Positions 3,937 to 22,753 of a stretch of DNA of 64,000 nt are shown piece by piece. The DNA is taken from positions 1 through 64,000 of the IMG/VR virus record IMGVR_UViG_3300016474_000281; one strand, given 5' to 3'. Each line of letters begins with the position of its first letter. Positions within the stretch are counted from its first letter, which is position 1. Made by a program: the position numbers and the translations under genes. The notes beneath the pieces were generated by a model. It made no database searches. It was not told the DNA's origin and saw nothing but the letters and a program-made list of their open reading frames with translations. The DNA comes from a virus.

Positions 3937-3942
3937 GATAAC

Positions 3943-3970: not shown

Positions 3971-4053
3971 CACATTATTTAGTGCTAAAGTGGTTACAAG
4001 GTACACTAGGTAGAACCCGATAAAGGCTGTTATATAGAACAGGGGAAACTACT

Positions 4054-4296: not shown

Positions 4297-4298
4297 CA

Positions 4299-4502: not shown

Positions 4503-4504
4503 CA

Positions 4505-5275: not shown

Positions 5276-5301
5276 AGAACTGTTTAATGATGTTTTGTTT
5301 A

Positions 5302-5332
5302 GACTGGGGGCGTAATGTTCCCAGTCTTTTTT
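5302..5332 (+). terminator. rho-independent terminator
   Basis: gactggg (5302-5308) pairs with cccagtc (5320-5326), followed by TTTTTT. Confidence 0.8.
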
Positions 5333-5343
5333 AATTTTACAAT
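5332..5343 (+). promoter_or_regulatory. Bacteroidota-type -7 box directly abutting a start codon (TAatTTTa-caat-ATG)
   Basis: Same TAnnTTT(G/A)-CAnn-ATG geometry as at 19367, 29259 and 31011. Confidence 0.35.
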
Positions 5344-5484
5344 ATGCGTATAAAGAGACTTAAACTGACTATTATAACCAACTTCACAGGTAAAGATATG
5401 AGGCGTGAAAACCTCCACTTCTTTACATCTAAGGGTGCAAATGAATCTGATGAAACTTTTAGTTCAATGTTTACATTATGCTGA
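5344..5484 (+). CDS. micro-ORF A1 (46 aa)
   Basis: pep MRIKRLKLTIITNFTGKDMRRENLHFFTSKGANESDETFSSMFTLC; 3p junction is a 7-nt overlap ATGCTGA. Confidence 0.55.
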   Translation: MRIKRLKLTIITNFTGKDMRRENLHFFTSKGANESDETFSSMFTLC

Positions 5485-5618
5485 TAAATACATACAGACT
5501 AAGTGTTATATCTATACTTACAAGTAGAGACGTTAGACATGAATTTCATTATTTCTTTGCTCGTAAGGCAATAAATGATTTTGACAAATTTATTAGTTCA
5601 ACATTTACAATGATATAA
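5478..5618 (+). CDS. micro-ORF A2 (46 aa), clear paralog of A1
   Basis: pep MLINTYRLSVISILTSRDVRHEFHYFFARKAINDFDKFISSTFTMI. Confidence 0.55.
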   Translation: MLINTYRLSVISILTSRDVRHEFHYFFARKAINDFDKFISSTFTMI

Positions 5619-5620
5619 TC

Positions 5621-5764
5621 GTGGAATTAGATACAAAACAAATACTAAATACTAATCCAGCTTATTATAGCAAGCTTGCAGTAAGTATGGAAACTTTGGC
5701 CAAATCTCACGATACATTCAATAATAAATACTACGCAATAGGAACAACTTTCACAATGGTATGA
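5621..5764 (+). CDS. micro-ORF A3 (47 aa, GTG start)
   Basis: pep VELDTKQILNTNPAYYSKLAVSMETLAKSHDTFNNKYYAIGTTFTMV; cgtggaatta resembles the usual tatggaacta junction; 3p junction ATGA. Confidence 0.4.
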   Translation: MELDTKQILNTNPAYYSKLAVSMETLAKSHDTFNNKYYAIGTTFTMV

Positions 5765-5871
5765 ACATAACTAAACCTACATACATGTATATGTTTGAGT
5801 ACAGGTTCAACAGTTTGAACAAGCTGAGATTTAATCACAAGTGGACAAGTGTATTGTTATGTTGTTACTAG
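5761..5871 (+). CDS. micro-ORF A4 (36 aa)
   Basis: pep MNITKPTYMYMFEYRFNSLNKLRFNHKWTSVLLCCY; 13-nt overlap with A5. Confidence 0.45.
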   Translation: MNITKPTYMYMFEYRFNSLNKLRFNHKWTSVLLCCY

Positions 5872-5984
5872 TTAAAGCTTATTCAGAACACGCTATAAAG
5901 AAAGAAGTAGTATTTACAAAGAGTTGGATACTGAAGAATCATTGGACACTTGATAACGTATCAATTATATTCACATGCGTATAG
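5859..5984 (+). CDS. micro-ORF A5 (41 aa)
   Basis: pep MLLLVKAYSEHAIKKEVVFTKSWILKNHWTLDNVSIIFTCV; 10-nt overlap with A6. Confidence 0.45.
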   Translation: MLLLVKAYSEHAIKKEVVFTKSWILKNHWTLDNVSIIFTCV

Positions 5985-6067
5985 TAATAAAAGTTTGTAA
6001 TTCAATATCTATTTGTACAGTAGTGGAGAAATACAAAGACCTATCAATTAGATTCATATGCAAATAA
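5975..6067 (+). CDS. micro-ORF A6 (30 aa)
   Basis: pep MRIVIKVCNSISICTVVEKYKDLSIRFICK; 10-nt overlap with A7. Confidence 0.4.
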   Translation: MRIVIKVCNSISICTVVEKYKDLSIRFICK

Positions 6068-6162
6068 CTACAGGTTTTGCAGCTTACTACGTAGTTAGTT
6101 CTATAACTATTCGTAGTACTTGGCAACCTAGGTGCATGTCAACTACGTTAATATGCGAGTAA
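6058..6162 (+). CDS. micro-ORF A7 (34 aa)
   Basis: pep MQITTGFAAYYVVSSITIRSTWQPRCMSTTLICE; 10-nt overlap with the RadC-like start. Confidence 0.4.
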   Translation: MQITTGFAAYYVVSSITIRSTWQPRCMSTTLICE

Positions 6163-9605: not shown

Positions 9606-9640
9606 GCTGGGGGGAGTATAAAGCTCTCTCCAGCATTTTT
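9606..9640 (+). terminator. rho-independent terminator (stem rich in G-U wobbles)
   Basis: gctggggggagt pairs with gctctctccagc (about 12 bp including wobbles), then aTTTTT. Confidence 0.6.
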
Positions 9641-9650
9641 AACTACCAAC

Positions 9651-10409
9651 ATGAAGAAAAAAGCAACACCCAAAGAGGTTTCACTACCTAGAAGATTAAA
9701 AAACATGCGTATTCAAGTACTAGATACGTACTTGTTTGATGCAATGTTTACTCTTCGCATGTTAAAAACAAAGTACGGGGATGATCTAGATGATATGTTG
9801 TACGACATGCCAGCTTTAGACATACCTGATAACACTGGTGTATCCTTGTTGGATGAAATCAAGATGGTATGGGATGACATCTATCCTATCTATGTTGTAG
9901 ATATTGTACAGCAGATACCAGATGCAGAGAGGGCTAGAGCTATCTTTCAGTATCTACCTACTGCAACTATGTTTGATGAAGGTAGCGAAGAGTTGCATGT
10001 AGCTACAGTTGAAACTAAACAAGTGGAAGAAGATGGTTCTACCAGGGTAATAAACAATGTGTATAGATTGATTAGAAAGAAGACTAGTAAGTTGTTTCCT
10101 AAGCTGCAACCAGGTCAAACTTTAGCTTTCGAGTATTTGTATGCTGTAGAAGTGAGATGTGTAACTACGGATAAAGTGTACAGGTTGCTTGTACCTGAAA
10201 GTGAATCATTTTGTAAGCAAGGTTCTTATGATGCTGCTGCTGCTATAGCTTGGACTGTAAGGCCTCCTATAACTAACCCTAAAGCTCTGGTTAGACAAGG
10301 TGAAAAATTCTTGTGGATTCACAGCTCTGACTCAGTTGTTTTACCTGCTGAACAGTGGAAACATCTTACTAAGAAAGAATACTTTAAGTATCTTGTATTT
10401 CAATCGTAA
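9651..10409 (+). CDS. hypothetical protein (252 aa)
   Basis: The track ORF starts at TTG 9588 inside the terminator; the first ATG is 9651. Confidence 0.7.
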   Translation: MKKKATPKEVSLPRRLKNMRIQVLDTYLFDAMFTLRMLKTKYGDDLDDMLYDMPALDIPDNTGVSLLDEIKMVWDDIYPIYVVDIVQQIPDAERARAIFQYLPTATMFDEGSEELHVATVETKQVEEDGSTRVINNVYRLIRKKTSKLFPKLQPGQTLAFEYLYAVEVRCVTTDKVYRLLVPESESFCKQGSYDAAAAIAWTVRPPITNPKALVRQGEKFLWIHSSDSVVLPAEQWKHLTKKEYFKYLVFQS

Positions 10410-11755: not shown

Positions 11756-11781
11756 TTGATTCATGTTTATAGATTGATTTG

Positions 11782-11813
11782 AGGAGGCTGGGTTAGTACC
11801 TGGTCTCCTTTTT
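11782..11813 (+). terminator. rho-independent terminator
   Basis: aggaggctggg pairs with cctggtctcct (3 G-T wobbles), loop ttagta, then TTTTT. Confidence 0.7.
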
Positions 11814-11824
11814 AATTCATAGCT

Positions 11825-11989
11825 ATGTTATTGAGTATTGAAAGTAAATACGGTATCAACAAAGAGTATTTTAACAACTTACTTGTTGTTGGAATGGGTT
11901 TGTACTCTGAAAAGTCAAGTTCAAAACGTGGCTTTTATTGGTTTGACTTGAAGCGTTTAGATTGTGGAACTACAACTGTTTTAATATGA
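11825..11989 (+). CDS. micro-ORF B1 (54 aa)
   Basis: pep MLLSIESKYGINKEYFNNLLVVGMGLYSEKSSSKRGFYWFDLKRLDCGTTTVLI; 3p junction ATGA. Confidence 0.5.
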   Translation: MLLSIESKYGINKEYFNNLLVVGMGLYSEKSSSKRGFYWFDLKRLDCGTTTVLI

Positions 11990-12252
11990 AACTTCTAAAG
12001 ATAAAGTTTAAAGGTGTTGGATGCAGAGATAATGTAGGTTCGTATTTAGAAAACAGACGTTTACCTTCTTATCTATACTGGTATAATAAAATTAGACAAC
12101 AGCTTTACAATGGTAATAATATGATACTAGAGACTACATATACTAAAGGTGAAACCAGTATTTTAAGTACCACCTATAGGAAACTTTGTGTACCAAACTG
12201 GCTGTTTGACCTTTCTGATTTACAGCTTAGTTTTATACCTATACTAATATGA
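11986..12252 (+). CDS. micro-ORF B2 (88 aa, looks like two fused units)
   Basis: pep MKLLKIKFKGVGCRDNVGSYLENRRLPSYLYWYNKIRQQLYNGNNMILETTYTKGETSILSTTYRKLCVPNWLFDLSDLQLSFIPILI; an internal aataatatgata junction is read in frame; 3p junction ATGA. Confidence 0.55.
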   Translation: MKLLKIKFKGVGCRDNVGSYLENRRLPSYLYWYNKIRQQLYNGNNMILETTYTKGETSILSTTYRKLCVPNWLFDLSDLQLSFIPILI

Positions 12253-12362
12253 TAGTTTCAATTAAATTCATAAAAGAATCAGATTTTACTGGATTAATGT
12301 TTCCTTTTGTAAAAGGTTGTGAAATTGATTCAGCTACTTTAATACTACACGTATGGAACTAG
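12249..12362 (+). CDS. micro-ORF B3 (37 aa)
   Basis: pep MIVSIKFIKESDFTGLMFPFVKGCEIDSATLILHVWN; 3p junction ATGGAACTAG. Confidence 0.5.
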   Translation: MIVSIKFIKESDFTGLMFPFVKGCEIDSATLILHVWN

Positions 12363-12484
12363 CAACTACAACATTAGTGTTTATGAGTTTATTTGGTGAA
12401 AGATATGTGTACAATCCACAATACTTTAGTGAGTTGTACATGAGAAAATTAGATCATGATTCTGTACATCTAACACTACACTGA
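12353..12484 (+). CDS. micro-ORF B4 (43 aa)
   Basis: pep MELATTTLVFMSLFGERYVYNPQYFSELYMRKLDHDSVHLTLH; 3p junction TGATG. Confidence 0.5.
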   Translation: MELATTTLVFMSLFGERYVYNPQYFSELYMRKLDHDSVHLTLH

Positions 12485-12588
12485 TGAAGATAAAAACCAC
12501 AGGAATACACTACAAGAAGTTTTACAAAGAATATTATTGGATCACAAACTCTAGTAAAGTGGGTAGTACATATTTAATTATACATTGA
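12484..12588 (+). CDS. micro-ORF B5 (34 aa)
   Basis: pep MKIKTTGIHYKKFYKEYYWITNSSKVGSTYLIIH; 3p junction TGATG. Confidence 0.5.
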   Translation: MKIKTTGIHYKKFYKEYYWITNSSKVGSTYLIIH

Positions 12589-12695
12589 TGGAAATCAAAA
12601 TAATATTTAAGCAATATCTTAGTGCTAAAGGGTTATTTTTCCCTAGTGTCAAGTATATATCTTCTAACGTAACTACATTATTTTACATAGTATGA
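12588..12695 (+). CDS. micro-ORF B6 (35 aa)
   Basis: pep MEIKIIFKQYLSAKGLFFPSVKYISSNVTTLFYIV; 3p junction ATGA. Confidence 0.5.
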   Translation: MEIKIIFKQYLSAKGLFFPSVKYISSNVTTLFYIV

Positions 12696-12802
12696 AAATC
12701 AAATGGTATCTTATGACTAGAATAGATATTAAAGTACATTCTACATACAGCAGTCTTACCCTAATGAATGATTCTTTAAGTACTGTAATGTTACTGATAT
12801 GA
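12692..12802 (+). CDS. micro-ORF B7 (36 aa), paralog of B12
   Basis: pep MKIKWYLMTRIDIKVHSTYSSLTLMNDSLSTVMLLI; 3p junction ATGA. Confidence 0.55.
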   Translation: MKIKWYLMTRIDIKVHSTYSSLTLMNDSLSTVMLLI

Positions 12803-12936
12803 AAGTAACTTTAAGACTAGTAGGAAGTTGTTATCTAAACAAAAAGTTTTACGTATGGTATTCAATAAAGCATTATGTTATGTGGAATACTATGAACAAA
12901 CAAATACACTGTTCAAATACATTTATGTTAATATGA
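12799..12936 (+). CDS. micro-ORF B8 (45 aa), paralog of B13
   Basis: pep MKVTLRLVGSCYLNKKFYVWYSIKHYVMWNTMNKQIHCSNTFMLI; 3p junction ATGA. Confidence 0.55.
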   Translation: MKVTLRLVGSCYLNKKFYVWYSIKHYVMWNTMNKQIHCSNTFMLI

Positions 12937-12962
12937 AAGTAGCTTTATTAGATGTGAGATGA
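12933..12962 (+). pseudogene. micro-ORF B9, 9-aa stump of a unit
   Basis: pep MKVALLDVR; normal ATGA junctions on both sides but the body is deleted. Confidence 0.4.
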
Positions 12963-13063
12963 AAATAAAAATTTCAGCAATACACGATAACAAGTTTTAT
13001 TATGAACATTCTTGGTTTATAGAAGGTTACAAAGGGTTTAGTGTACATTTAATTACAAACTGA
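12959..13063 (+). CDS. micro-ORF B10 (34 aa)
   Basis: pep MKIKISAIHDNKFYYEHSWFIEGYKGFSVHLITN; 3p junction TGATG. Confidence 0.5.
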   Translation: MKIKISAIHDNKFYYEHSWFIEGYKGFSVHLITN

Positions 13064-13179
13064 TGGAGTTAAAACTAACAGCAAAACACTATCATGTATC
13101 TGAAGATACGTGGAAGCTAGTAGATGTGTATTTTGGTTTAAAAAGTAAGTACATAGGCACTGAAATTTTACTAATATGA
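13063..13179 (+). CDS. micro-ORF B11 (38 aa)
   Basis: pep MELKLTAKHYHVSEDTWKLVDVYFGLKSKYIGTEILLI; 3p junction ATGA. Confidence 0.5.
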   Translation: MELKLTAKHYHVSEDTWKLVDVYFGLKSKYIGTEILLI

Positions 13180-13292
13180 AGATTACCTGGAAACTTATGA
13201 CCAGATTTGGTACTAAAGTACATTCTACATATAGCAATGTCAAGTTAATAGATGATAACATGAGTACTGCAATCTTATTGATATGGAAATAA
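13176..13292 (+). CDS. micro-ORF B12 (38 aa), paralog of B7
   Basis: pep MKITWKLMTRFGTKVHSTYSNVKLIDDNMSTAILLIWK; 3p junction ATGGAAATAA. Confidence 0.55.
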   Translation: MKITWKLMTRFGTKVHSTYSNVKLIDDNMSTAILLIWK

Positions 13293-13426
13293 CTTTAAAG
13301 ATAACTGGAGGTTGCTGTACAAACAAGAAGTACATTTTACTTCATTCAGCAAAATATTACGCTACTTGGCTTGGTAGAAAAGATAAACAGTTAGCTGATT
13401 GTTCATATATATTTACAATGATATGA
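13283..13426 (+). CDS. micro-ORF B13 (47 aa), paralog of B8
   Basis: pep MEITLKITGGCCTNKKYILLHSAKYYATWLGRKDKQLADCSYIFTMI; 3p junction ATGA. Confidence 0.55.
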   Translation: MEITLKITGGCCTNKKYILLHSAKYYATWLGRKDKQLADCSYIFTMI

Positions 13427-13584
13427 GACTACATAGAGAATACGGTTTTGAAGACATGGACATAGAGATACTTGTGTATGGAGGTTACTTTCATAACACT
13501 AAGCTTGGCATAGATCCGTATAAAATACTCAATGATTTTCGTAGACAGTATGAAACTCGTTCAACAATACTTACTTTAGTATGA
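13423..13584 (+). CDS. micro-ORF B14 (53 aa)
   Basis: pep MRLHREYGFEDMDIEILVYGGYFHNTKLGIDPYKILNDFRRQYETRSTILTLV; track ORF 13399-13584 trimmed to the ATG; 3p junction ATGA. Confidence 0.55.
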   Translation: MRLHREYGFEDMDIEILVYGGYFHNTKLGIDPYKILNDFRRQYETRSTILTLV

Positions 13585-13733
13585 GATTAGATAGATTATT
13601 AGGTGAAACTGATATCATCACTGCCAAAGGTAGTTATTTTAACATGCACTTCAGCAATGAAGCTAACTTAAGTTGGAGGTGTACACTTAGGCTTGCTTAT
13701 TTACTCAAATCTATAATGTTTACAATGATATGA
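13581..13733 (+). CDS. micro-ORF B15 (50 aa)
   Basis: pep MRLDRLLGETDIITAKGSYFNMHFSNEANLSWRCTLRLAYLLKSIMFTMI; 3p junction ATGA. Confidence 0.55.
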   Translation: MRLDRLLGETDIITAKGSYFNMHFSNEANLSWRCTLRLAYLLKSIMFTMI

Positions 13734-13882
13734 ATCTAAATGATTTTTTTGGTATATCTGGAGCTGGACATATTTCAAAAATGATTCAGATGAAAAGGTT
13801 TCCAACACTAATGATGCATCTTGAACTCAAGAACAGAATAGTAAAAGATTTAGGAGCTATAACTATACTAAAATGGAACTAA
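13730..13882 (+). CDS. micro-ORF B16 (50 aa)
   Basis: pep MNLNDFFGISGAGHISKMIQMKRFPTLMMHLELKNRIVKDLGAITILKWN; 3p junction ATGGAACTAA. Confidence 0.55.
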   Translation: MNLNDFFGISGAGHISKMIQMKRFPTLMMHLELKNRIVKDLGAITILKWN

Positions 13883-14016
13883 AAGTATTACGTAAGTCAG
13901 GAGCTGGATATTACTCAGAGCCTTTCAAAAAAGTTACTGAAATTGTATTTAAGAGTTATACTCCATACAGGTATAACGTAGCAAAAAATATAAGCATAAT
14001 AACTATACTGAGATGA
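13873..14016 (+). CDS. micro-ORF B17 (47 aa), tandem twin of B18
   Basis: pep MELKVLRKSGAGYYSEPFKKVTEIVFKSYTPYRYNVAKNISIITILR; 3p junction ATGA. Confidence 0.6.
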   Translation: MELKVLRKSGAGYYSEPFKKVTEIVFKSYTPYRYNVAKNISIITILR

Positions 14017-14162
14017 ACTTAAAAGTGTCACGTAAGTCAGGAGGTGGATACTTTACACAACCTTTTTTAGTAAGAAATGACATTGTGTTAATGAGTTATG
14101 TTTCATACAAGTTTAACGCAACAAAAGATACAAGCTTAATAACTATATTGATATGGAAGTAA
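14013..14162 (+). CDS. micro-ORF B18 (49 aa), tandem twin of B17
   Basis: pep MNLKVSRKSGGGYFTQPFLVRNDIVLMSYVSYKFNATKDTSLITILIWK; 3p junction ATGGAAGTAA. Confidence 0.6.
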   Translation: MNLKVSRKSGGGYFTQPFLVRNDIVLMSYVSYKFNATKDTSLITILIWK

Positions 14163-14278
14163 GAGTTAATAAAGTAGGTGGTGCTTACTACAGTTTAAAA
14201 GATAAACAAACTGATGTGTATTACTGCAGACATTTTCATTCAACACAAACTAATGGAACTAAATTAGTACTGCAATGA
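14153..14278 (+). CDS. micro-ORF B19 (41 aa)
   Basis: pep MEVRVNKVGGAYYSLKDKQTDVYYCRHFHSTQTNGTKLVLQ; 3p junction ATGA. Confidence 0.55.
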   Translation: MEVRVNKVGGAYYSLKDKQTDVYYCRHFHSTQTNGTKLVLQ

Positions 14279-14430
14279 AGGTAGTATCTAAGACATTTGT
14301 AAGTGGTCATTTTAACGAGCAGCTTAAAGATTTAGTTGGGAAGAATATTTTTATTCTCAGGTTCTTACCTTCAAAAGTAGATGGAGATATTATTAACTGT
14401 GTTACTAGTGTAAATTTTATTTCAATATGA
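14275..14430 (+). CDS. micro-ORF B20 (51 aa)
   Basis: pep MKVVSKTFVSGHFNEQLKDLVGKNIFILRFLPSKVDGDIINCVTSVNFISI; 3p junction ATGA. Confidence 0.55.
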   Translation: MKVVSKTFVSGHFNEQLKDLVGKNIFILRFLPSKVDGDIINCVTSVNFISI

Positions 14431-14537
14431 AATTAAAAAGACTTCCTATAACAAGTTACACTCACATAAGAATGGAACCCATATATTTTAGACAATTTAC
14501 TTCTAGCTTAGGAGGTGTTACAACAGTAGTGATATGA
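14427..14537 (+). CDS. micro-ORF B21 (36 aa)
   Basis: pep MKLKRLPITSYTHIRMEPIYFRQFTSSLGGVTTVVI; 3p junction ATGA. Confidence 0.5.
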   Translation: MKLKRLPITSYTHIRMEPIYFRQFTSSLGGVTTVVI

Positions 14538-14674
14538 GACTGTACGCATTAAATGTAGTTGGTTGTTATTGGAACAATAAAGGCGATAGTTTCACAATGT
14601 TAAAAAAAAAGCACTACCTTATTTATGTTTACGCAGGTAGCATAGTTGATTCAACAATATTAATATGCAATTAG
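14534..14674 (+). CDS. micro-ORF B22 (46 aa)
   Basis: pep MRLYALNVVGCYWNNKGDSFTMLKKKHYLIYVYAGSIVDSTILICN; 3p junction ATGCAATTAG. Confidence 0.55.
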   Translation: MRLYALNVVGCYWNNKGDSFTMLKKKHYLIYVYAGSIVDSTILICN

Positions 14675-14811
14675 ATCAGGTTGTATTACTTGGAGGAGAT
14701 GCTTGTGATAAATTTAGACATTTTGTTTCAAATTCAATATTGTCTGGATACTATCAAGACCCTGACTATAAACATAAACTTGACTCAATAATCTTAATGT
14801 TATGGAAATAA
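14665..14811 (+). CDS. micro-ORF B23 (48 aa)
   Basis: pep MQLDQVVLLGGDACDKFRHFVSNSILSGYYQDPDYKHKLDSIILMLWK; 3p junction ATGGAAATAA. Confidence 0.55.
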   Translation: MQLDQVVLLGGDACDKFRHFVSNSILSGYYQDPDYKHKLDSIILMLWK

Positions 14812-14957
14812 ATATAGTTAAAATGCTAGGTGGAGCTATATACAACGATAATACTCTTTTGTCAGATTCAAAGAGGAATACACATTCATCTTGGGATTTC
14901 ATATCTTTTGACACAGCTTATGATATACAGTCAACAATCTTGATGTTATGGAGTTAA
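14802..14957 (+). CDS. micro-ORF B24 (51 aa)
   Basis: pep MEINIVKMLGGAIYNDNTLLSDSKRNTHSSWDFISFDTAYDIQSTILMLWS; 3p junction ATGGAGTTAA. Confidence 0.55.
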   Translation: MEINIVKMLGGAIYNDNTLLSDSKRNTHSSWDFISFDTAYDIQSTILMLWS

Positions 14958-15091
14958 ATAGAATAGTGATTGTAGGTGGTAATATGTTTACCGAAAACAG
15001 TCTATATCAGTTTACTAAAGCTTTTCAATTCTATTCGTTACAAGTGAAACTTACTCCTCGTAGTTCAACAACATTCATACTATGGAAATAG
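14948..15091 (+). CDS. micro-ORF B25 (47 aa)
   Basis: pep MELNRIVIVGGNMFTENSLYQFTKAFQFYSLQVKLTPRSSTTFILWK; 3p junction ATGGAAATAG. Confidence 0.55.
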   Translation: MELNRIVIVGGNMFTENSLYQFTKAFQFYSLQVKLTPRSSTTFILWK

Positions 15092-15240
15092 ATAAAATCA
15101 TGATGACAGGTGGAGATATATATGAACGTTTTCCTTACATGTTTATTAAAATATATCCATTTTACTCAGTATTGTTTAATACAAACAAAACTGATTCAAC
15201 AACATTTATACTATGGGGCTGTTTAGAAAAATACAAATAA
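15082..15240 (+). CDS. micro-ORF B26 (52 aa)
   Basis: pep MEIDKIMMTGGDIYERFPYMFIKIYPFYSVLFNTNKTDSTTFILWGCLEKYK; 28-nt overlap with B27. Confidence 0.55.
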   Translation: MEIDKIMMTGGDIYERFPYMFIKIYPFYSVLFNTNKTDSTTFILWGCLEKYK

Positions 15241-15344
15241 GTGGTGGTTGTTTTAGAAATCATTTGTTTGGTTATGAACCTTTATGCGGGTGGGAATACA
15301 AAAGAATTGACCAAGATGAATCTATTATATTTTGTTTAACCTAA
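15213..15344 (+). CDS. micro-ORF B27 (43 aa), twin of B28
   Basis: pep MGLFRKIQISGGCFRNHLFGYEPLCGWEYKRIDQDESIIFCLT; 10-nt gap before B28. Confidence 0.55.
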   Translation: MGLFRKIQISGGCFRNHLFGYEPLCGWEYKRIDQDESIIFCLT

Positions 15345-15354
15345 TAAAACTATT

Positions 15355-15486
15355 ATGAATCTTTTTAAAAGAATAATCTATGGAGGTGGGCGTGGTAGTC
15401 ATTCAAAAAGTATAAACCTGGTTTTACATTTGTATAACTTCAATAAGGTTAAACCAGATGAATCAATTATAACTGTTTGTTTATGA
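15355..15486 (+). CDS. micro-ORF B28 (43 aa), twin of B27
   Basis: pep MNLFKRIIYGGGRGSHSKSINLVLHLYNFNKVKPDESIITVCL; 3p junction ATGA. Confidence 0.55.
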   Translation: MNLFKRIIYGGGRGSHSKSINLVLHLYNFNKVKPDESIITVCL

Positions 15487-15611
15487 AGATAGCAATGATG
15501 AAGAGAGGTTTATCTTTCTTTAATACAAGAACAAATCCAGCTTTTCATCCCTGGACTTACTCAGCTAAAATGACAAATGTACTTATTGGAACAAAACTTA
15601 TCTTGATATGA
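15483..15611 (+). CDS. micro-ORF B29 (42 aa)
   Basis: pep MKIAMMKRGLSFFNTRTNPAFHPWTYSAKMTNVLIGTKLILI; 3p junction ATGA. Confidence 0.5.
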   Translation: MKIAMMKRGLSFFNTRTNPAFHPWTYSAKMTNVLIGTKLILI

Positions 15612-15757
15612 AACTAAAAAGTAGAATAATTGGAGAAGGTTACGGCATGTCTAAAAGAGAAATAAGAGATAACAAAGGAAACTCTTATTACCACGCGATG
15701 AAGTTTAAAGATGGTTCTAAAGCAGCTTCAGTAAACATTATACTAACATGGAACTAG
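15608..15757 (+). CDS. micro-ORF B30 (49 aa)
   Basis: pep MKLKSRIIGEGYGMSKREIRDNKGNSYYHAMKFKDGSKAASVNIILTWN; 3p junction ATGGAACTAG. Confidence 0.55.
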   Translation: MKLKSRIIGEGYGMSKREIRDNKGNSYYHAMKFKDGSKAASVNIILTWN

Positions 15758-15888
15758 ATACAATAAGTAAAGGTTACAGTTTTAAATCACCTTTAGCAAA
15801 CATCACCTACATGACCTTAGTTAAAGATACTAAGGTCAAGTTTAGTACGTTGGCAACAAGTAGTATGTTGCTAATATTGACACGATGA
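15748..15888 (+). CDS. micro-ORF B31 (46 aa)
   Basis: pep MELDTISKGYSFKSPLANITYMTLVKDTKVKFSTLATSSMLLILTR; 3p junction ATGA. Confidence 0.55.
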   Translation: MELDTISKGYSFKSPLANITYMTLVKDTKVKFSTLATSSMLLILTR

Positions 15889-16019
15889 GAATTGGAAACA
15901 ACTTATTTGGAGGTAGTTATTATATGCCTAAGAATATAAAGATAGTTGCAGATTATCACGGTGTATTAAGACATACAGCTTCATCCCTTAGAAGTACAAC
16001 ACTTATCTTATGGAACTAA
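15885..16019 (+). CDS. micro-ORF B32 (44 aa)
   Basis: pep MRIGNNLFGGSYYMPKNIKIVADYHGVLRHTASSLRSTTLILWN; 3p junction ATGGAACTAA. Confidence 0.55.
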   Translation: MRIGNNLFGGSYYMPKNIKIVADYHGVLRHTASSLRSTTLILWN

Positions 16020-16156
16020 AAACAGATACGTTTGGTAGTTGCTATTTTACAGATGGACAGTGGCACAAAGACTTTATGTTAGACGCTAACTTTATCTCTA
16101 TTAGTGAAAGTGTTCAGACTCAAAGTAAAAGCGCAATACTAGTACTATGGAATTAA
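16010..16156 (+). CDS. micro-ORF B33 (48 aa)
   Basis: pep MELKTDTFGSCYFTDGQWHKDFMLDANFISISESVQTQSKSAILVLWN; 3p junction ATGGAATTAA. Confidence 0.6.
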   Translation: MELKTDTFGSCYFTDGQWHKDFMLDANFISISESVQTQSKSAILVLWN

Positions 16157-16305
16157 AGTTTGACATATCAGGAGGTAGTCACGCTACTACAGACTTAGTT
16201 AGTGTTCAAAAGAAATCTGTGTTTGACACAGACTTTAAAATTTTTAAAGCTAGGGAACTTCATGGACACAATCACATAAGTACAAATTTGATAGTATGGA
16301 ACTGA
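16147..16305 (+). CDS. micro-ORF B34 (52 aa)
   Basis: pep MELKFDISGGSHATTDLVSVQKKSVFDTDFKIFKARELHGHNHISTNLIVWN; 3p junction ATGGAACTGA. Confidence 0.6.
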   Translation: MELKFDISGGSHATTDLVSVQKKSVFDTDFKIFKARELHGHNHISTNLIVWN

Positions 16306-16445
16306 GAACTAACACACTAGGTAATTGCTACTGTACAAATAAGAATCACTATAAAGTGCCAATGGATAACACGACAAATTACGCTCCTATCAGAACATTC
16401 TTGATACTTAAAAATAGAGGTATAACACTAATACTATGGAACTAA
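16296..16445 (+). CDS. micro-ORF B35 (49 aa)
   Basis: pep MELRTNTLGNCYCTNKNHYKVPMDNTTNYAPIRTFLILKNRGITLILWN; 3p junction ATGGAACTAA. Confidence 0.6.
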   Translation: MELRTNTLGNCYCTNKNHYKVPMDNTTNYAPIRTFLILKNRGITLILWN

Positions 16446-16585
16446 CTGTTGATATATTTGGTAGTAGCTATGATATAGACTCACTTGAACATACAGTGTT
16501 TATAACAGAATTTAGTGTACTTATGCCTATATCAAGATGTTATGAAGTTAAAAATACAGGTGCAATCTTACTGTTATGGAACTAA
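16436..16585 (+). CDS. micro-ORF B36 (49 aa)
   Basis: pep MELTVDIFGSSYDIDSLEHTVFITEFSVLMPISRCYEVKNTGAILLLWN; 3p junction ATGGAACTAA. Confidence 0.6.
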   Translation: MELTVDIFGSSYDIDSLEHTVFITEFSVLMPISRCYEVKNTGAILLLWN

Positions 16586-16722
16586 AGTCTGATATATCAG
16601 GTGCTTCTTATGGAGGATCCTACTTTGTAGATAGGACAAGAATACAACTTAAACGATATGAATTTATATCTGCTGGAATTTGGAAAGGAAAAACTATATC
16701 AACACTATTTGTATGCAGTTAA
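16576..16722 (+). CDS. micro-ORF B37 (48 aa)
   Basis: pep MELKSDISGASYGGSYFVDRTRIQLKRYEFISAGIWKGKTISTLFVCS; 3p junction ATGCAGTTAA. Confidence 0.6.
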   Translation: MELKSDISGASYGGSYFVDRTRIQLKRYEFISAGIWKGKTISTLFVCS

Positions 16723-16856
16723 GAGTTAACTTCTTAGGAATATGCTACTCCAAATGTGAAGTAAGAGATAGAGATATTAAGTCACAACGTTGGGAGTTTG
16801 TAGAAATTAAATCTTGGAATCAAAAAAACATGTCAACGTTAATGTTATGTATTTAG
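16713..16856 (+). CDS. micro-ORF B38 (47 aa)
   Basis: pep MQLRVNFLGICYSKCEVRDRDIKSQRWEFVEIKSWNQKNMSTLMLCI; 3p junction ATGTATTTAG. Confidence 0.55.
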   Translation: MQLRVNFLGICYSKCEVRDRDIKSQRWEFVEIKSWNQKNMSTLMLCI

Positions 16857-16987
16857 ATTTTAAAATGATTGGAGCTGGGTATGAAACACATAACCAATGG
16901 TACAGGATTCAATCTGCTTTAATGGCATTTGGAATACACCGTGGATTTAACGATTTAGACGTAGGATTAAAAACAATACTAATATGA
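16847..16987 (+). CDS. micro-ORF B39 (46 aa)
   Basis: pep MYLDFKMIGAGYETHNQWYRIQSALMAFGIHRGFNDLDVGLKTILI; 3p junction ATGA. Confidence 0.55.
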   Translation: MYLDFKMIGAGYETHNQWYRIQSALMAFGIHRGFNDLDVGLKTILI

Positions 16988-17124
16988 AAATAGCATCAGA
17001 TTTAGCTGGAGGTTCTATATATAACACTAAAAGTATACTTAAAAGTGTATTTGTGCAACCAGCATTATACAGACAAAGAGAAAAAACCGATTCAACTAGA
17101 AGTAGTATAACTATACTAATATGA
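16984..17124 (+). CDS. micro-ORF B40 (46 aa)
   Basis: pep MKIASDLAGGSIYNTKSILKSVFVQPALYRQREKTDSTRSSITILI; 3p junction ATGA. Confidence 0.6.
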   Translation: MKIASDLAGGSIYNTKSILKSVFVQPALYRQREKTDSTRSSITILI

Positions 17125-17267
17125 AACTAAAAATAAATTATAGAGGCATTTCAATATTTCAAAAAGATACATATCTTGAATCTGCTAAGTCACAAAAAGG
17201 ACTGGCACAACAATATGTAAGCTTTTTTGTAAATAAAGTATTAAGTACAACAACATTACTAATATGA
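17121..17267 (+). CDS. micro-ORF B41 (48 aa)
   Basis: pep MKLKINYRGISIFQKDTYLESAKSQKGLAQQYVSFFVNKVLSTTTLLI; 3p junction ATGA. Confidence 0.55.
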   Translation: MKLKINYRGISIFQKDTYLESAKSQKGLAQQYVSFFVNKVLSTTTLLI

Positions 17268-17413
17268 AGTTACAATCAGATATTGTTGGTGGATCGTATG
17301 TACAGAATGAAGATTGTTTTAAACTTCATCTTATAGGTGTAGAGTATTCTGATACGTATACTTTTCTCAGCTATGTAGATAACAATGTAGGTTTAATATC
17401 ATTACTAGTATGA
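17264..17413 (+). CDS. micro-ORF B42 (49 aa)
   Basis: pep MKLQSDIVGGSYVQNEDCFKLHLIGVEYSDTYTFLSYVDNNVGLISLLV; 3p junction ATGA. Confidence 0.6.
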   Translation: MKLQSDIVGGSYVQNEDCFKLHLIGVEYSDTYTFLSYVDNNVGLISLLV

Positions 17414-17553
17414 AATTAAGATTAAATGGAACATTAACTTCTCCTTATATGGGAGCAAGCTGTTATACTGGAATCAATCATAAGAGACATAGTTCTTTAA
17501 AGCTGTGGGCACGTCTACCCAGGACTTGTGGAGCTTCAATTGTGTTGATATGA
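17410..17553 (+). CDS. micro-ORF B43 (47 aa)
   Basis: pep MKLRLNGTLTSPYMGASCYTGINHKRHSSLKLWARLPRTCGASIVLI; 3p junction ATGA. Confidence 0.55.
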   Translation: MKLRLNGTLTSPYMGASCYTGINHKRHSSLKLWARLPRTCGASIVLI

Positions 17554-17681
17554 AGTTGATAGAAAACTTAAACATATATCACTGTTCTTTAGACAAAGAA
17601 AGACAACTATGCCAATTCAAGTATAAACACCATTATGCTGTCATAAATGAATACATAAGTTGTTTAAACATACTGATATGA
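17550..17681 (+). CDS. micro-ORF B44 (43 aa)
   Basis: pep MKLIENLNIYHCSLDKERQLCQFKYKHHYAVINEYISCLNILI; 3p junction ATGA. Confidence 0.55.
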   Translation: MKLIENLNIYHCSLDKERQLCQFKYKHHYAVINEYISCLNILI

Positions 17682-17806
17682 AACTGAGTTATGAATGTTT
17701 TAAGAGAAGAGGCATATACTTTAAAGGATACTTGACATCACCTAAACATACTATTTTCATTCAAGTCAAGTATTGGGACGTAGGTATGTTAAACATATTG
17801 TCATAA
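17678..17806 (+). CDS. micro-ORF B45 (42 aa)
   Basis: pep MKLSYECFKRRGIYFKGYLTSPKHTIFIQVKYWDVGMLNILS; the 3p junction is ATAA because the next unit has lost its ATG. Confidence 0.5.
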   Translation: MKLSYECFKRRGIYFKGYLTSPKHTIFIQVKYWDVGMLNILS

Positions 17807-17928
17807 GATTGCATTACTTTATATTGTTTAGAGGATCAAGTTACAGTTCTATAAAAAAAGGTGTATTTGTAAATACGTCTCTTCGTAACAGAAACAAAAC
17901 TAAATCAATAATTACAGCACTTCTATGA
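17803..17928 (+). pseudogene. micro-ORF B46: intact 41-codon unit whose start codon is ATA (TTG two codons later)
   Basis: pep (I)RLHYFILFRGSSYSSIKKGVFVNTSLRNRNKTKSIITALL; tcATAAgat sits where other units have tcATGAaa; 3p junction ATGA. Confidence 0.4.
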
Positions 17929-18068
17929 ACATAATGTGTAAAATAAGAATGACTGGAGGAGACTATTCAACAGGACACTTTGATAGATTTATATATCAGA
18001 ATAAGTGTTACGAACATTACTTGGATCGTAGGTTTATTGAAACAGCTTTACAGCTTATTGTTATATGA
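17925..18068 (+). CDS. micro-ORF B47 (47 aa)
   Basis: pep MNIMCKIRMTGGDYSTGHFDRFIYQNKCYEHYLDRRFIETALQLIVI; 3p junction ATGA. Confidence 0.55.
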   Translation: MNIMCKIRMTGGDYSTGHFDRFIYQNKCYEHYLDRRFIETALQLIVI

Positions 18069-18112
18069 AACTTAATTCGTTATACACTATGAGACTTAAT
18101 CCGTTGTACACT
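18065..18112 (+). repeat. 2 x 24-bp tandem repeat (21/24 identical)
   Basis: atgaaacttaattcgttatacact (18065-18088) and atgagacttaatccgttgtacact (18089-18112). Confidence 0.9.
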
Positions 18113-18208
18113 ACAATTGTTTGTATAGGTATGCATAGGACATTAGCTTATTACCAGCCAATTACAAGATTAAGTTATGAAGATTCAATTATACTTGTAA
18201 CAATATGA
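18065..18208 (+). CDS. micro-ORF B48 (47 aa) with an internal 24-bp tandem duplication of its own start region
   Basis: pep MKLNSLYTMRLNPLYTTIVCIGMHRTLAYYQPITRLSYEDSIILVTI; 3p junction ATGA. Confidence 0.55.
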   Translation: MKLNSLYTMRLNPLYTTIVCIGMHRTLAYYQPITRLSYEDSIILVTI

Positions 18209-18351
18209 ATCTATCCTGGAACGATAACAACTGGCCTTTTACTATAATGGTTAGAGGAGGTAACTTTAAGCGATGTGCACACATGTACACTACTGGTATA
18301 TATGTAACTTACTCTTCAAAACATTACTCAGCTATACTAGTGACAACATGA
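18205..18351 (+). CDS. micro-ORF B49 (48 aa)
   Basis: pep MNLSWNDNNWPFTIMVRGGNFKRCAHMYTTGIYVTYSSKHYSAILVTT; 3p junction ATGA. Confidence 0.55.
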   Translation: MNLSWNDNNWPFTIMVRGGNFKRCAHMYTTGIYVTYSSKHYSAILVTT

Positions 18352-18485
18352 TACTAAATACATTTGTACAATTGAGAGGTACTTGTAACTGCCTGAGAAG
18401 AAAGACAAAAGATGGAGCTATTAGGAGAGGTGTATGGTTTAGCGCGCAAGTAAAATCTCACGGTTTACTACTGGTTTTAATTTAA
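18348..18485 (+). CDS. micro-ORF B50 (45 aa)
   Basis: pep MILNTFVQLRGTCNCLRRKTKDGAIRRGVWFSAQVKSHGLLLVLI; track ORF 18273-18485 trimmed to the ATG; 11-nt gap follows. Confidence 0.55.
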   Translation: MILNTFVQLRGTCNCLRRKTKDGAIRRGVWFSAQVKSHGLLLVLI

Positions 18486-18496
18486 ACAAACATAAG

Positions 18497-18643
18497 ATGA
18501 AATTAACTCAAGACAGTTTGTTGTTGCTATCTAAAGGTGGCCACTACTTAGGTAAGGAAAGTATTTTGGATCATGAAATATGTTATCTTTCATTCTTTCG
18601 TACAAAATACATTCACAAATCAATAACAACTATTTTAATATGA
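18497..18643 (+). CDS. micro-ORF B51 (48 aa)
   Basis: pep MKLTQDSLLLLSKGGHYLGKESILDHEICYLSFFRTKYIHKSITTILI; 3p junction ATGA. Confidence 0.6.
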   Translation: MKLTQDSLLLLSKGGHYLGKESILDHEICYLSFFRTKYIHKSITTILI

Positions 18644-18783
18644 AACTAGTGGAAAGTAGGAAGATAGGAATTTGTTTTAGATCCCGTCCTTTTGTAGCAG
18701 ATAGTGTGTCTGTATTTACAGGGTTTAACAACTTTACATTTCTTTTAGAAAATACATTAGGAACTTATTTAATACTGATATGA
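18640..18783 (+). CDS. micro-ORF B52 (47 aa)
   Basis: pep MKLVESRKIGICFRSRPFVADSVSVFTGFNNFTFLLENTLGTYLILI; track ORF 18580-18783 trimmed to the ATG; 3p junction ATGA. Confidence 0.55.
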   Translation: MKLVESRKIGICFRSRPFVADSVSVFTGFNNFTFLLENTLGTYLILI

Positions 18784-18908
18784 ATTTACACAGGTATCGT
18801 ATAGCTGGAATATCGTATAGACAGAAGTATAACATAGGGTTTATACCTTTTTTTGATAGCCTTAACAAAAGAGATGTTGATGAATCAATAACATTTATAC
18901 TGATATGA
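18780..18908 (+). CDS. micro-ORF B53 (42 aa)
   Basis: pep MNLHRYRIAGISYRQKYNIGFIPFFDSLNKRDVDESITFILI; 3p junction ATGA. Confidence 0.55.
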   Translation: MNLHRYRIAGISYRQKYNIGFIPFFDSLNKRDVDESITFILI

Positions 18909-19048
18909 ATTTAACTATAAAACTGAAACATTATCCGTTTTATCTTAAACAAGATAAGATGTATCAAGCTGATGTGGCTTCTGAAAAGTTAATTTTTAAA
19001 GTGACAGCACAGCATCATTCATACAGTGTGAAAGTGATTCTTGCTTAA
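18905..19048 (+). CDS. micro-ORF B54 (47 aa)
   Basis: pep MNLTIKLKHYPFYLKQDKMYQADVASEKLIFKVTAQHHSYSVKVILA; 16-nt gap follows. Confidence 0.5.
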   Translation: MNLTIKLKHYPFYLKQDKMYQADVASEKLIFKVTAQHHSYSVKVILA

Positions 19049-19064
19049 CACAAACAATACAGTT

Positions 19065-19202
19065 ATGCCGTTGTTGTTTCAAAGAATAGGGTTATCCTAC
19101 ATGAGTTTAAACCACTATGAAATAATTACTAATATGAAGTTGCGAGCTGTTGTTTGTAAAGCAGGTAACTTTAGCTCAAAAATGATATTGACATGGAACT
19201 AG
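19065..19202 (+). CDS. micro-ORF B55 (45 aa, two short units fused in frame)
   Basis: pep MPLLFQRIGLSYMSLNHYEIITNMKLRAVVCKAGNFSSKMILTWN; an internal attactaatatgaag junction is read through; 3p junction ATGGAACTAG. Confidence 0.45.
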   Translation: MPLLFQRIGLSYMSLNHYEIITNMKLRAVVCKAGNFSSKMILTWN

Positions 19203-19336
19203 CTATAGACTTTATAGGAGCTACACATTCTCAAAGTGAATTTCATGTAAAGATTTACATGAACCCCGTACAGTTTTACAGTTTTTTTATATTTGAAAAA
19301 GATGAACTTAGGTCTGCAATATTTAATTTGATGTAA
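19193..19336 (+). CDS. micro-ORF B56 (47 aa), last unit of array B
   Basis: pep MELAIDFIGATHSQSEFHVKIYMNPVQFYSFFIFEKDELRSAIFNLM. Confidence 0.5.
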   Translation: MELAIDFIGATHSQSEFHVKIYMNPVQFYSFFIFEKDELRSAIFNLM

Positions 19337-19343
19337 AAGTTTA

Positions 19344-19374
19344 TTTGCAACATTGACTTAAATAGTTATCTTTG
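19344..19374 (+). promoter_or_regulatory. Bacteroidota-type promoter (TTTG-N19-TAtcTTTG) 4 nt upstream of an ATG
   Basis: TTTG at 19344-19347 and TATCTTTG at 19367-19374 with a 19-nt spacer; ATG at 19379 implies a leaderless or near-leaderless mRNA. Confidence 0.5.
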
Positions 19375-19378
19375 CAGC

Positions 19379-19618
19379 ATGAGTAGTGTAGAAACAGCTA
19401 TAGTAGCTATCATCGAACAAAGAGCTAAGAAAGGGTTGGAGACCTATGGTGTAACCCTGGATAGAACTGATTATCCTGTTGAACAAGGTATATCAGATGC
19501 TATTGAAGAAGCACTTGACCTAGCTATATACTTACAGAAATGTAAGCAAGAAATAGCTAAATTGAGAAGTTACATTCAAGAACTAGAAGTAAAGATTAAA
19601 ACGTATGAGCAACATTAA
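19379..19618 (+). CDS. hypothetical helical protein (79 aa)
   Basis: ATG ORF; EEALDLAIYL is faintly reminiscent of all-alpha NTP-pyrophosphohydrolase folds (weak). Confidence 0.6.
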   Translation: MSSVETAIVAIIEQRAKKGLETYGVTLDRTDYPVEQGISDAIEEALDLAIYLQKCKQEIAKLRSYIQELEVKIKTYEQH

Positions 19619-19833: not shown

Positions 19834-19907
19834 AACAGAGTAGCTTAAATGGTAGAGCACAAGACTCATAATCTTGATGGATGCAGGTTCAAATCCTGTC
19901 TTTGTTA
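19834..19907 (+). tRNA. tRNA with anticodon CAT (elongator Met or lysidine-dependent Ile2); no encoded CCA
   Basis: Hand-folded cloverleaf: acceptor aacagag/ctttgtt, D-arm gctt-aaatggta-gagc, anticodon arm caaga-ctCATaa-tcttg, T-arm gcagg-ttcaaat-cctgt. The anticodon stem lacks the three G-C pairs of initiator tRNA. Ends are +/- 2 nt. Confidence 0.75.
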
Positions 19908-19919
19908 CTAATTTAAACT

Positions 19920-21602: not shown

Positions 21603-21749
21603 ATGAAATTCACATTTAAAATGGCTGGTATAGCTGCGGTAACTGAAGTTTATTTTGTAAAAAATTATCACAACAAAGTACTTTTTACAACGGCTATACC
21701 TTGTAAAGTAAGAACTAGAAGTTGTGGTAATAAATTATTACTAGCGTGA
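21603..21749 (+). CDS. micro-ORF C1 (48 aa), twin of C2
   Basis: pep MKFTFKMAGIAAVTEVYFVKNYHNKVLFTTAIPCKVRTRSCGNKLLLA; the 3p junction is GTGA because the next start is GTG. Confidence 0.5.
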   Translation: MKFTFKMAGIAAVTEVYFVKNYHNKVLFTTAIPCKVRTRSCGNKLLLA

Positions 21750-21901
21750 AAATAACGTTAAAGATTAAATTAACTGGGGCAGGTGCTTTAACTGCAGTTT
21801 ATTACATAAAGAGTTATCAAAGTATAATAGTTTTTGAATCTGCTCTAAGCAATAATGTAAAATGTTCTTATTGGAGTAGTAAATTCTTACTAATATGCTA
21901 A
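21746..21901 (+). CDS. micro-ORF C2 (51 aa, GTG start)
   Basis: pep VKITLKIKLTGAGALTAVYYIKSYQSIIVFESALSNNVKCSYWSSKFLLIC; 7-nt overlap with C3. Confidence 0.4.
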   Translation: MKITLKIKLTGAGALTAVYYIKSYQSIIVFESALSNNVKCSYWSSKFLLIC

Positions 21902-22011
21902 TGATTTTCAATGCTGCTGCTTTAACTAATCATACTAAACTAGCTAATTACTTTCGTTTAAAAGCTAAACATGGAGGTAAGCTGGGTAGTTGTAAATTTA
22001 TACTAATATGA
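21895..22011 (+). CDS. micro-ORF C3 (38 aa)
   Basis: pep MLMIFNAAALTNHTKLANYFRLKAKHGGKLGSCKFILI; 3p junction ATGA. Confidence 0.5.
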   Translation: MLMIFNAAALTNHTKLANYFRLKAKHGGKLGSCKFILI

Positions 22012-22157
22012 ACATACCTATAAAAATGTCAGGTGCATCTTACATTAGTAATAAGATCACAACAAATTTAGAAAGGTCAAAACAAAGAGTATTAACAAAA
22101 AGCACCTTTCTACATGTTCACACAAGTAATGTTGGCAGTTTATTTTTATTGACATGA
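22008..22157 (+). CDS. micro-ORF C4 (49 aa), twin of C5
   Basis: pep MNIPIKMSGASYISNKITTNLERSKQRVLTKSTFLHVHTSNVGSLFLLT; 3p junction ATGA. Confidence 0.55.
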   Translation: MNIPIKMSGASYISNKITTNLERSKQRVLTKSTFLHVHTSNVGSLFLLT

Positions 22158-22300
22158 ACATACTCGTACACGTATTAGGTGCATCTCATATCAGCTACAG
22201 GTCTACCTTAGATACAGAAAGGTTAGGGTCAGGTAGACAAGGGTTTTGCGGTTTACATACTCGTGCAAATAATTGTAGTTTAATACTTATTTTGACATGA
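22154..22300 (+). CDS. micro-ORF C5 (48 aa), twin of C4
   Basis: pep MNILVHVLGASHISYRSTLDTERLGSGRQGFCGLHTRANNCSLILILT; 3p junction ATGA. Confidence 0.55.
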   Translation: MNILVHVLGASHISYRSTLDTERLGSGRQGFCGLHTRANNCSLILILT

Positions 22301-22461
22301 AACTAAAACTAAATGTCACAAGTATATCTTGTTGCAGTTGCATAGGTGCAGCTAAAAACTATAAACGTGTAACATGTTTTTTATCTAGCAAGGTTTCTTC
22401 ACCTGTATTAGTACAAAATGGTTTAATTCACGGTAGTATATTTGTATTAGCATGGAACTAA
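22297..22461 (+). CDS. micro-ORF C6 (54 aa)
   Basis: pep MKLKLNVTSISCCSCIGAAKNYKRVTCFLSSKVSSPVLVQNGLIHGSIFVLAWN; 3p junction ATGGAACTAA. Confidence 0.55.
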   Translation: MKLKLNVTSISCCSCIGAAKNYKRVTCFLSSKVSSPVLVQNGLIHGSIFVLAWN

Positions 22462-22622
22462 TGAGAATAGGGTATAGTGGTAATGTTGTTTTCCCCTGGG
22501 GAGGTAGTTGTCTATCAACTTTAAAGATAGGTTTTTCACAATACCCTATATCTAAAAGTAGCGGATATGCTATGCACGTGTTTAAAACACCACTGATAAG
22601 TACTTACTTAGTATTGATATGA
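22452..22622 (+). CDS. micro-ORF C7 (56 aa)
   Basis: pep MELMRIGYSGNVVFPWGGSCLSTLKIGFSQYPISKSSGYAMHVFKTPLISTYLVLI; 3p junction ATGA. Confidence 0.55.
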   Translation: MELMRIGYSGNVVFPWGGSCLSTLKIGFSQYPISKSSGYAMHVFKTPLISTYLVLI

Positions 22623-22753
22623 ACATATATACAATTGGTTTATATAAAGGTATGGTCTTTAAGAATACGCACAAAGACACTTTAAAGTGCTACCTACCTA
22701 GAGACATACTGTTTAAAACAACAGATTTAACATCATATTTTTTAATCACTTAA
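22619..22753 (+). CDS. micro-ORF C8 (44 aa), last unit of array C
   Basis: pep MNIYTIGLYKGMVFKNTHKDTLKCYLPRDILFKTTDLTSYFLIT. Confidence 0.5.
   Translation: MNIYTIGLYKGMVFKNTHKDTLKCYLPRDILFKTTDLTSYFLIT

Follow-up and report, generated by a model that had tools for sequence, protein, structure and literature searches.

Junctions between chained micro-ORFs of a phage genome combine hydrophobic tail codons with a probable SD-free translation start context

The window, a stretch of 64,000 nucleotides that forms the first 64 kb of a circularly assembled phage genome of 102,932 bp, carries three arrays (A, B and C) of chained micro-ORFs within its rightward early/replication block (Table 1). The DNA polymerase of the phage is 27–29% identical to the DNA polymerases of crAss-like phages, whose hosts are usually Bacteroidota. 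The host of this phage is probably also a member of the Bacteroidota, judging from the affinity of its DNA polymerase, the SD-less context of its gene starts and the TAnnTTTG boxes found elsewhere in its genome. Arrays A–C hold 69 listed units, mostly of 34–56 codons, which belong to one family with the consensus M-[KE]-[LI]-x5-G-[GAS]-x-[YF] ... [FY] ... [SG]-x-x-x and then three hydrophobic residues; the hydrophobic tail spans 5–7 residues. The family is very divergent, with a mean column identity of 20% and a pairwise amino acid identity whose median is 22% and maximum 58%. The units are coding: none of their 3156 codons is an in-frame stop, against 0.10–0.13 stops per codon in the other two frames. 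Note that two units lack an ATG start and are otherwise in normal register with their junction context kept, namely unit 17803 (ATA) and unit 21746 (GTG).

Table 1. Micro-ORF arrays, junction blocks and associated features of the window (minus positions are counted from the downstream ATG)
Feature	Position	Strand	Description
Head-type module, further copy	~2915-2970	+	Copy of the array head module
Array A head module	5301..5346	+	Hairpin, TTTTTAATT, 7 nt, ATG (same layout as array B head)
Array A	5344..6162	+	6 listed members of the micro-ORF family; A at -12 in all 4 junctions used
Head-type module, further copy	9606-9653	+	Copy of the array head module
Array B head module	11781..11827	+	13-bp G+C-rich hairpin, TTTTTAATT, 7 nt, first ATG; T at -12
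Array B	11825..19336	+	55 chained micro-ORFs of 34-88 aa; gives 50/61 same-register junctions
Junction block B22/23	14648..14667	+	D-S-T-I-L-I tail codons of unit 14534 and ATG of unit 14665; A at -12, -6 and -3
Junction block B23/24	14782..14805	+	D-S-I-I-L-M-L-W tail of unit 14665 and ATG of unit 14802; stop/start overlap of 10 nt, ATGGAAATAA; A at -12 and -6, G at -3
Junction block B24/25	14928..14951	+	Q-S-T-I-L-M-L-W tail and ATG of unit 14948; A at -12, G at -6, G at -3
Junction block B25/26	15062..15085	+	S-S-T-T-F-I-L-W tail and ATG of unit 15082; A at -12 and -3
Junction block B26/27	15193..15216	+	D-S-T-T-F-I-L-W tail and ATG of unit 15213; A at -12 and -3
tRNA, anticodon CAT	19834-19908	+	Just past array B
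Array C	21603..22753	+	8 micro-ORFs; 7 junctions used

No PHROGs family was matched by any of 40 units and Rfam gave zero matches in the arrays. AlphaFold2, run on an alignment of 40 paralogues, yielded no usable fold (pLDDT 59.7, pTM 0.21) and did not support a pairing of the N- and C-terminal segments of the micro-proteins. A profile search of 1.84 billion representatives recovered, beyond the units of the window itself, a handful of close variants, and blastn with the array as query gave no match among 50,697 phage records. Related loci were looked for in viral contigs with the upstream 318-aa protein, the DNA polymerase and protein P0008, in metagenome contigs with P0001 and in genome contigs with ThyX, and none was confirmed; the relatives found are known as proteins only, from Logan, ENA and JGI assemblies. 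A DNA pattern built on three junctions matched at least 118 loci in viral contigs and, among those listed, none has a chain of at least 5 micro-ORFs, while the same chain criterion applied to the window returns chains of 18, 18, 7 and 6 micro-ORFs. The early “long intergenic” regions of Cellulophaga phage phi14:2 are highly transcribed, and small ORF annotations were removed there in 2020. That these RNAs might be unannotated micro-ORF chains was considered and rejected: positions 2904–4602 of NC_021806 carry no overlapping micro-ORF chain like those of the arrays.

Junctions were anchored on the ATG of the downstream unit. In 61 of them the upstream ORF lies in the same register, with a codon at positions (-2, -1, +1), and the statistics given here use these 61. 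The register is shared because the stop of the upstream ORF is set by the first codons of the next unit, which read A-TGA or A-TGG-AAN-TAA. Stop and start overlap by 4 nt at 34 junctions, by 1 nt at 3 and by 7–28 nt at 24, the latter class being mostly ATGGAANTAA; 4 junctions have gaps of 10–22 nt. The second base of codon 3 (+8), which encodes L, I, V, F or M, is T in 65 of 65 units. In the TGG class this T forms the TAA stop of the upstream ORF, and it is invariant even where the upstream ORF ends on TGA and no TAA is needed.

The information profile of 65 junctions has a strict 3-nt period and its conservation is limited to positions -20 to +10. Between -21 and -1 the 61 junctions total 8.57 bits, of which 4.95 (58%) fall on codon position 2 of the upstream ORF, 1.42 on position 1 and 2.19 on position 3. 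Codon position 2 is T (at -1, -4, -7 and -10), which codes the hydrophobic tail. The tail residues are reached through unrelated codon families: leucine at -5 to -3 is written CTA 11 times, TTG 10, CTG 7, TTA 5 and CTT once (19 CTN, 15 TTR), and the codon at -20 to -18 is serine as AGY in 15 junctions and as TCN in 10, with glycine in 14. There is also an enrichment of C at -5 and of G at -3, which a mere need for A/U-rich sequence does not predict. The use of unrelated codons for the same residues, together with the enriched C and G, argues that the tail peptide is selected in its own right, and the earlier suggestion that its conservation might be a by-product of a nucleic acid signal finds no support here.

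The five consecutive junctions of array B listed in Table 1 had been proposed to share a block of about 22 nt, and all five quoted strings occur exactly where they had been placed. A MAFFT alignment of the five units has 28 invariant columns, 14 of them within the last ~24 columns and the others at the ATG and codons 2–4 and at GGTGGAG (Gly-Gly), while the cores are unalignable. With up to 3 mismatches allowed, the window contains 4 matches to a degenerate 21-mer built from the block (0.12 expected). The distance from block to ATG is one codon shorter in B22/23 than in the other four junctions, and 5 of the ~7 codons of the block vary synonymously within the five. The motif GAWTCAAYA, reported by the original prediction ahead of the ATG in distant units as well, has 6 exact copies in the window, both strands included (2.7 expected; at least 6 in 4 of 100 shuffles), 3 of them in the arrays, and is not significantly enriched. 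With up to one mismatch it has 23 matches in the arrays, 10 of which end no more than 25 nt ahead of the ATG of a unit (by position, 19% would be expected; binomial P = 0.006), and 9 of these 10 are in the reading frame as D/E/K-S-T/I. Thus the distant copies close to an ATG exist but are mostly inexact, and their in-frame reading identifies the block as a sub-family version of the C-terminal tail. The shared block is real and narrower than was first stated.

Silent sites were compared with the prediction from the encoded amino acids and codon usage by a Poisson-binomial test under two nulls, the unit cores and the 70 other genes of the phage. A codon-usage null was used in place of dS between paralogues since synonymous sites are saturated (closest pair 58% and median 22% amino acid identity). 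A is found at -12 in 54 of 61 junctions, with 29.8 expected from the cores and 25.3 from the other genes (P = 7e-14 and 8e-18, respectively), and at -6 in 43 of 61 (31.5 and 29.3 expected; P = 1e-3 and 2e-4). At -3 the bias is for a purine (50 of 61, with 37.6 expected from the cores and 41.5 from the other genes; P = 1e-5 and 5e-4), A alone being not enriched (27 versus 25.7 expected). The control third positions -9 and -15 show no excess under either null, and the excess at -18 and -21 is marginal with the other-genes null (P = 3e-3 and 2e-2) and absent with the unit-core null. None of thirteen downstream codon columns has a third-position excess save +9, where junctions with a 10-nt overlap carry the central A of the TAA that stops the upstream ORF (19/20). 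The claim that the conservation of the junctions is partly at the nucleotide level therefore holds, and a raised constraint on silent sites relative to core usage is found at -12, -6 and -3 while -9, -15, -18 and -21 are free.

The bias at -12 is the strongest. The codon at -14 to -12 specifies eight different amino acids (I, T, S, K, L, A, V and E) and nevertheless ends in A in 51 of 58 junctions; threonine at this place is ACA 11 times and never ACT, a codon that is common one codon to either side. Relative to the flanking third positions -9 and -15 the excess of A has a Fisher P of 4e-12. It is present in all arrays (A, 4/4; the two halves of B, 23/25 and 21/25; C, 6/7), and array C also has A at -6 in 6/7 junctions and a purine at -3 in 7/7. 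Codons ending in A are disfavoured genome-wide before a codon starting with A, which makes the codon-usage null conservative for A at -12. The three junctions with non-coding gaps (15355, 18497 and 19065) have A-rich spacers without the T periodicity and keep A at -12 in all cases, while the first units of the four array segments have T at this position. In 23 overlapping junctions of the same phage outside the arrays, A is found at -6 in 11 (7.0 expected; P = 0.02) and at -12 in 12 (9.9 expected; not significant). The weakness of the bias in these ordinary overlaps indicates that near-fixation of A at -12 is specific to the arrays, plausibly because the hydrophobic tail leaves few other sites for adenines.

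These positions have a counterpart in the SD-less initiation regions of Flavobacterium johnsoniae, in which ribosome profiling and reporters identified an A tract at -14 to -11 and adenines at -3, -6, -12 and -13 as positive determinants of initiation (Baez et al. 2019, PMC6847099). Note that the A of AUG is numbered 0 in that study, so its upstream positions are equal to those used here. Of the seven third positions between -3 and -21, three are biased under both nulls and all three are among the published determinants. The determinant at -13 has no equivalent in the junctions, where A is found in 22%; the low value is due to the site being codon position 2 (T/C). The frequencies of A at -14, -12 and -11 are 64%, 88% and 64%, and the mean number of adenines at -14 to -10 is 2.41 in junctions, 2.81 in the other genes and 1.78 in register-matched core windows. 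The 70 other genes of the phage have 56–69% A at -13 to -10 and ~50% at -6 to -3, with very little G, including at -15 to -5. SD-like 4-mers between -20 and -4 were found in 3 of 61 junctions and 2 of 70 other genes, against 8.8% of random coding windows. The mean MFE from -35 to +10 is -3.4 kcal/mol in junctions, equal to that of shuffles, whereas the cores are more structured (-4.9 kcal/mol; P = 0.001), and just 2 of 61 junction windows reach -8 kcal/mol. The unpaired probability at -15 to -10 is 0.56–0.59 compared to a mean of 0.48, a small peak of accessibility. Additional ATGs are fewer between -21 and -1, and all twelve found there are methionine codons of the upstream frame. Taken with the A tract of the other genes, the published SD-less positions and the low folding are consistent with one of the options put forward by the original prediction, an unstructured A-rich landing pad for (re)initiating ribosomes.

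The heads of the arrays differ from their internal junctions. A recurrent module composed of a G+C-rich hairpin (MFE -18 to -21 kcal/mol), TTTTTAAYT, 6–7 nt and an ATG is found at the heads of arrays A and B and in two further copies (Table 1). It might act as a terminator placed directly against the following start, as a combined terminator and promoter, or as a phage promoter of the hairpin type. Strong hairpins are present at the heads of A and B, and no strong terminator was found inside the arrays.

Could the nucleotide likeness of the junctions be a consequence of conserved tail and N-terminal codons, of codon usage and of shared ancestry? The weight of codon position 2 in the block information, the encoding of leucine and serine by unrelated codons and the synonymous variation in the five junctions all accord with selection acting on the peptide; nonetheless a purely peptide-level origin has a hardly appreciable likelihood, in view of the A at -12 that is retained across codons for eight amino acids and far exceeds that at the flanking third positions, and of the saturation of the paralogues, in which common ancestry cannot hold a single third position. 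At the DNA level, the blocks might instead be microhomologies kept alike by unequal recombination or gene conversion while the array expands and contracts. The window does seem to differ from a close relative by the gain or loss of whole units with a junction as breakpoint, as protein P0002 of the relative joins the region of unit 12799 straight to unit 13283, and TRF reports a tandem repeat of 140 nt with 2.1 copies of 77% identity. Conversion would homogenise all positions, however, and variation is free at -9, -15, -18 and at codon position 1, only codon position 2 and three third positions being kept; moreover neighbouring blocks have at most ~20 imperfect bases in common. Recombination is accordingly an improbable cause of the likeness, if somewhat less so than peptide conservation. 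Aligned to positions 12799–13426 of the window, P0002 (from a Logan assembly) shows an alternative frame of unit 12799 running into unit 13283, so that the relative lacks ~350 nt comprising a 9-codon remnant at 12933 and three units, a whole-unit difference in copy number.

Two further readings place the signal in the production or maturation of the RNA. Each junction might be a promoter, read by a host sigma factor or by the virion RNA polymerase, which would make each unit its own, possibly leaderless, transcription unit. No promoter consensus is known for the virion RNA polymerases of crAss-like phages, so the absence of a motif is not by itself decisive against a promoter, and some genes of this phage do have a -7-like box a few bases ahead of the ATG. 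Among early transcripts of phi14:2 no common upstream motif was found (bioRxiv 10.1101/2020.03.07.982082). The arrays contain 7 TAnnTTTG boxes in 9.5 kb, that is 0.74/kb compared to 1.41/kb in the rest of the rightward region, at no fixed distance from the next ATG (7 to 130 nt), the seventh lying at the end of array B, and sigma-70-like matches are not in excess (74 versus 84.5 in shuffles). The junction conservation has codon periodicity and is confined to -20 to +10, and none of the IUPAC patterns tried with at least 22 bits fits more than 3 of the ~65 junctions, which argues against any element of fixed sequence. Promoters of the phage N4 virion RNA polymerase have a short stable hairpin. 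Junctions have no such hairpins, unlike the N4-type promoters and the array heads (-18 to -20 kcal/mol). A promoter repeated at each unit, as had been envisaged, is thus unsupported, lacking a -33/-7 motif and a hairpin and having a 3-nt period, and we consider it very unlikely. Scarcely better are the prospects of the block being a single-stranded A/U-rich endonuclease site at which the array transcript is cut to unit-length mRNAs. Sites of the RNase E/G type are likewise unstructured and A/U-rich, but beyond the three A/R positions no motif is conserved and those three match initiation determinants; the A tract is also seen ahead of ordinary phage genes, and cleavage within 12 nt of the ATG on its upstream side would detach the upstream ORF from its stop codon. 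An RNase site is not needed to explain the data.

The junction block is most probably a dual-use sequence that carries both the C-terminal tail codons of one micro-gene and the start site of the next on a polycistronic mRNA. In the upstream frame it would be selected for a tail made of a small residue (S/G), three variable residues and three hydrophobic ones, with the stop being supplied by the opening codons of the next unit, A-TGA or A-TGG-AAN-TAA. As RNA it would serve to initiate translation of the next micro-gene, as an SD-free region of the Bacteroidota type. Since the hydrophobic tail fixes T at every codon position 2, adenines go where the code allows, and their placement would be chiefly at the synonymous -12, -6 and -3 (purine) and also at the first codon positions -14 and -11. 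Each unit would probably be started by termination-reinitiation at overlaps of 1–13 nt or by internal de novo initiation, and A at -12, A at -6 and a purine at -3 are expected to raise the efficiency of initiation. The statistics of the junctions, their little structure and their lack of SD and promoter motifs are direct observations; translation of each unit and coupling between units are predicted from the sequence.

Both aspects of this dual-use junction have known counterparts. Like the SD-less initiation regions of Bacteroidota (PMC6847099), the junctions have no SD, an A tract at about -14 to -11, the positive positions -3, -6 and -12, little structure near the start and few extra AUGs between -21 and -1. 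They differ in that the whole region is itself coding, for the upstream hydrophobic tail, which makes -13 and -10 pyrimidines and pushes the adenines to third and first codon positions, in the frequency of A at -12 (88% versus 57% in the ordinary genes of the phage) and in having G as common as A at -3. Bacteroidetes were set apart as a fourth pattern with no SD at all, being uniquely SD-free both in de novo initiation and in reinitiation at overlaps (Huber et al. 2019, PMC6728339). The termination-reinitiation pairs of that study (ATGA/TGATG) resemble the junctions in the co-directional genes with overlaps of 4 nt (34 here) or 1 nt (3 here) and, for those of Bacteroidetes, in the lack of an SD in the 3′ end of the upstream gene. 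By contrast, the arrays link up to 55 very short genes (~45 codons) in succession, 24 junctions overlap by 7–28 nt and coupling is putative. The mechanism is of a known kind, a dual-coded overlap junction with initiation of the Bacteroidota type, in a setting that is unusually iterated and informative.

A more far-reaching version, which we regard as possible but rather doubtful, is that the junction is a dedicated SD-less reinitiation module by which one loading event at the array head is relayed through up to 55 micro-genes. Ribosomes would load at the hairpin-TTTTTAAYT-ATG module, end translation of each unit on A-TGA or TAA, be held by A(-12), A(-6) and R(-3) and restart 1–13 nt upstream, with a frame step of -1 per unit. 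Such a relay, if true, would answer what stands in for the SD in Bacteroidota reinitiation, with 61 natural replicates.

What guides the choice of start sites without SD is only partly known in Bacteroidota, chiefly from ribosome profiling and a small number of reporters in a single species. In the arrays the same junction is written 61 times under a strong competing coding constraint, and the silent sites rank the positions base by base: -12, then -3 and -6, are those that matter, and -9 and -15 those that do not. The junctions would show what replaces the SD in one phage. They give independent support from the phage side to the Kozak-like model of initiation and provide a compact panel of naturally occurring variants that reporter assays could use. 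With respect to annotation, the data argue that such arrays are operons of real, individually started micro-genes and neither non-coding repeats nor strings of mini transcription units.

Directly past the last stop of array B, positions 19337–19381 read TTTG, 19 nt, TAtcTTTG, 4 nt and ATG. The organization is that of a good candidate promoter of the Bacteroidota -33/-7 type, placed for a near-leaderless transcript of the gene at 19379, which codes a 79-aa protein. The tRNA with anticodon CAT follows. A role as initiator tRNA was ruled out by its paired 1-72 positions and an anticodon stem lacking three consecutive G-C pairs; elongation with Met, or with Ile at AUA codons, may be its function. 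Ile is most often encoded by ATA, which is also the most frequent codon at three junction positions.
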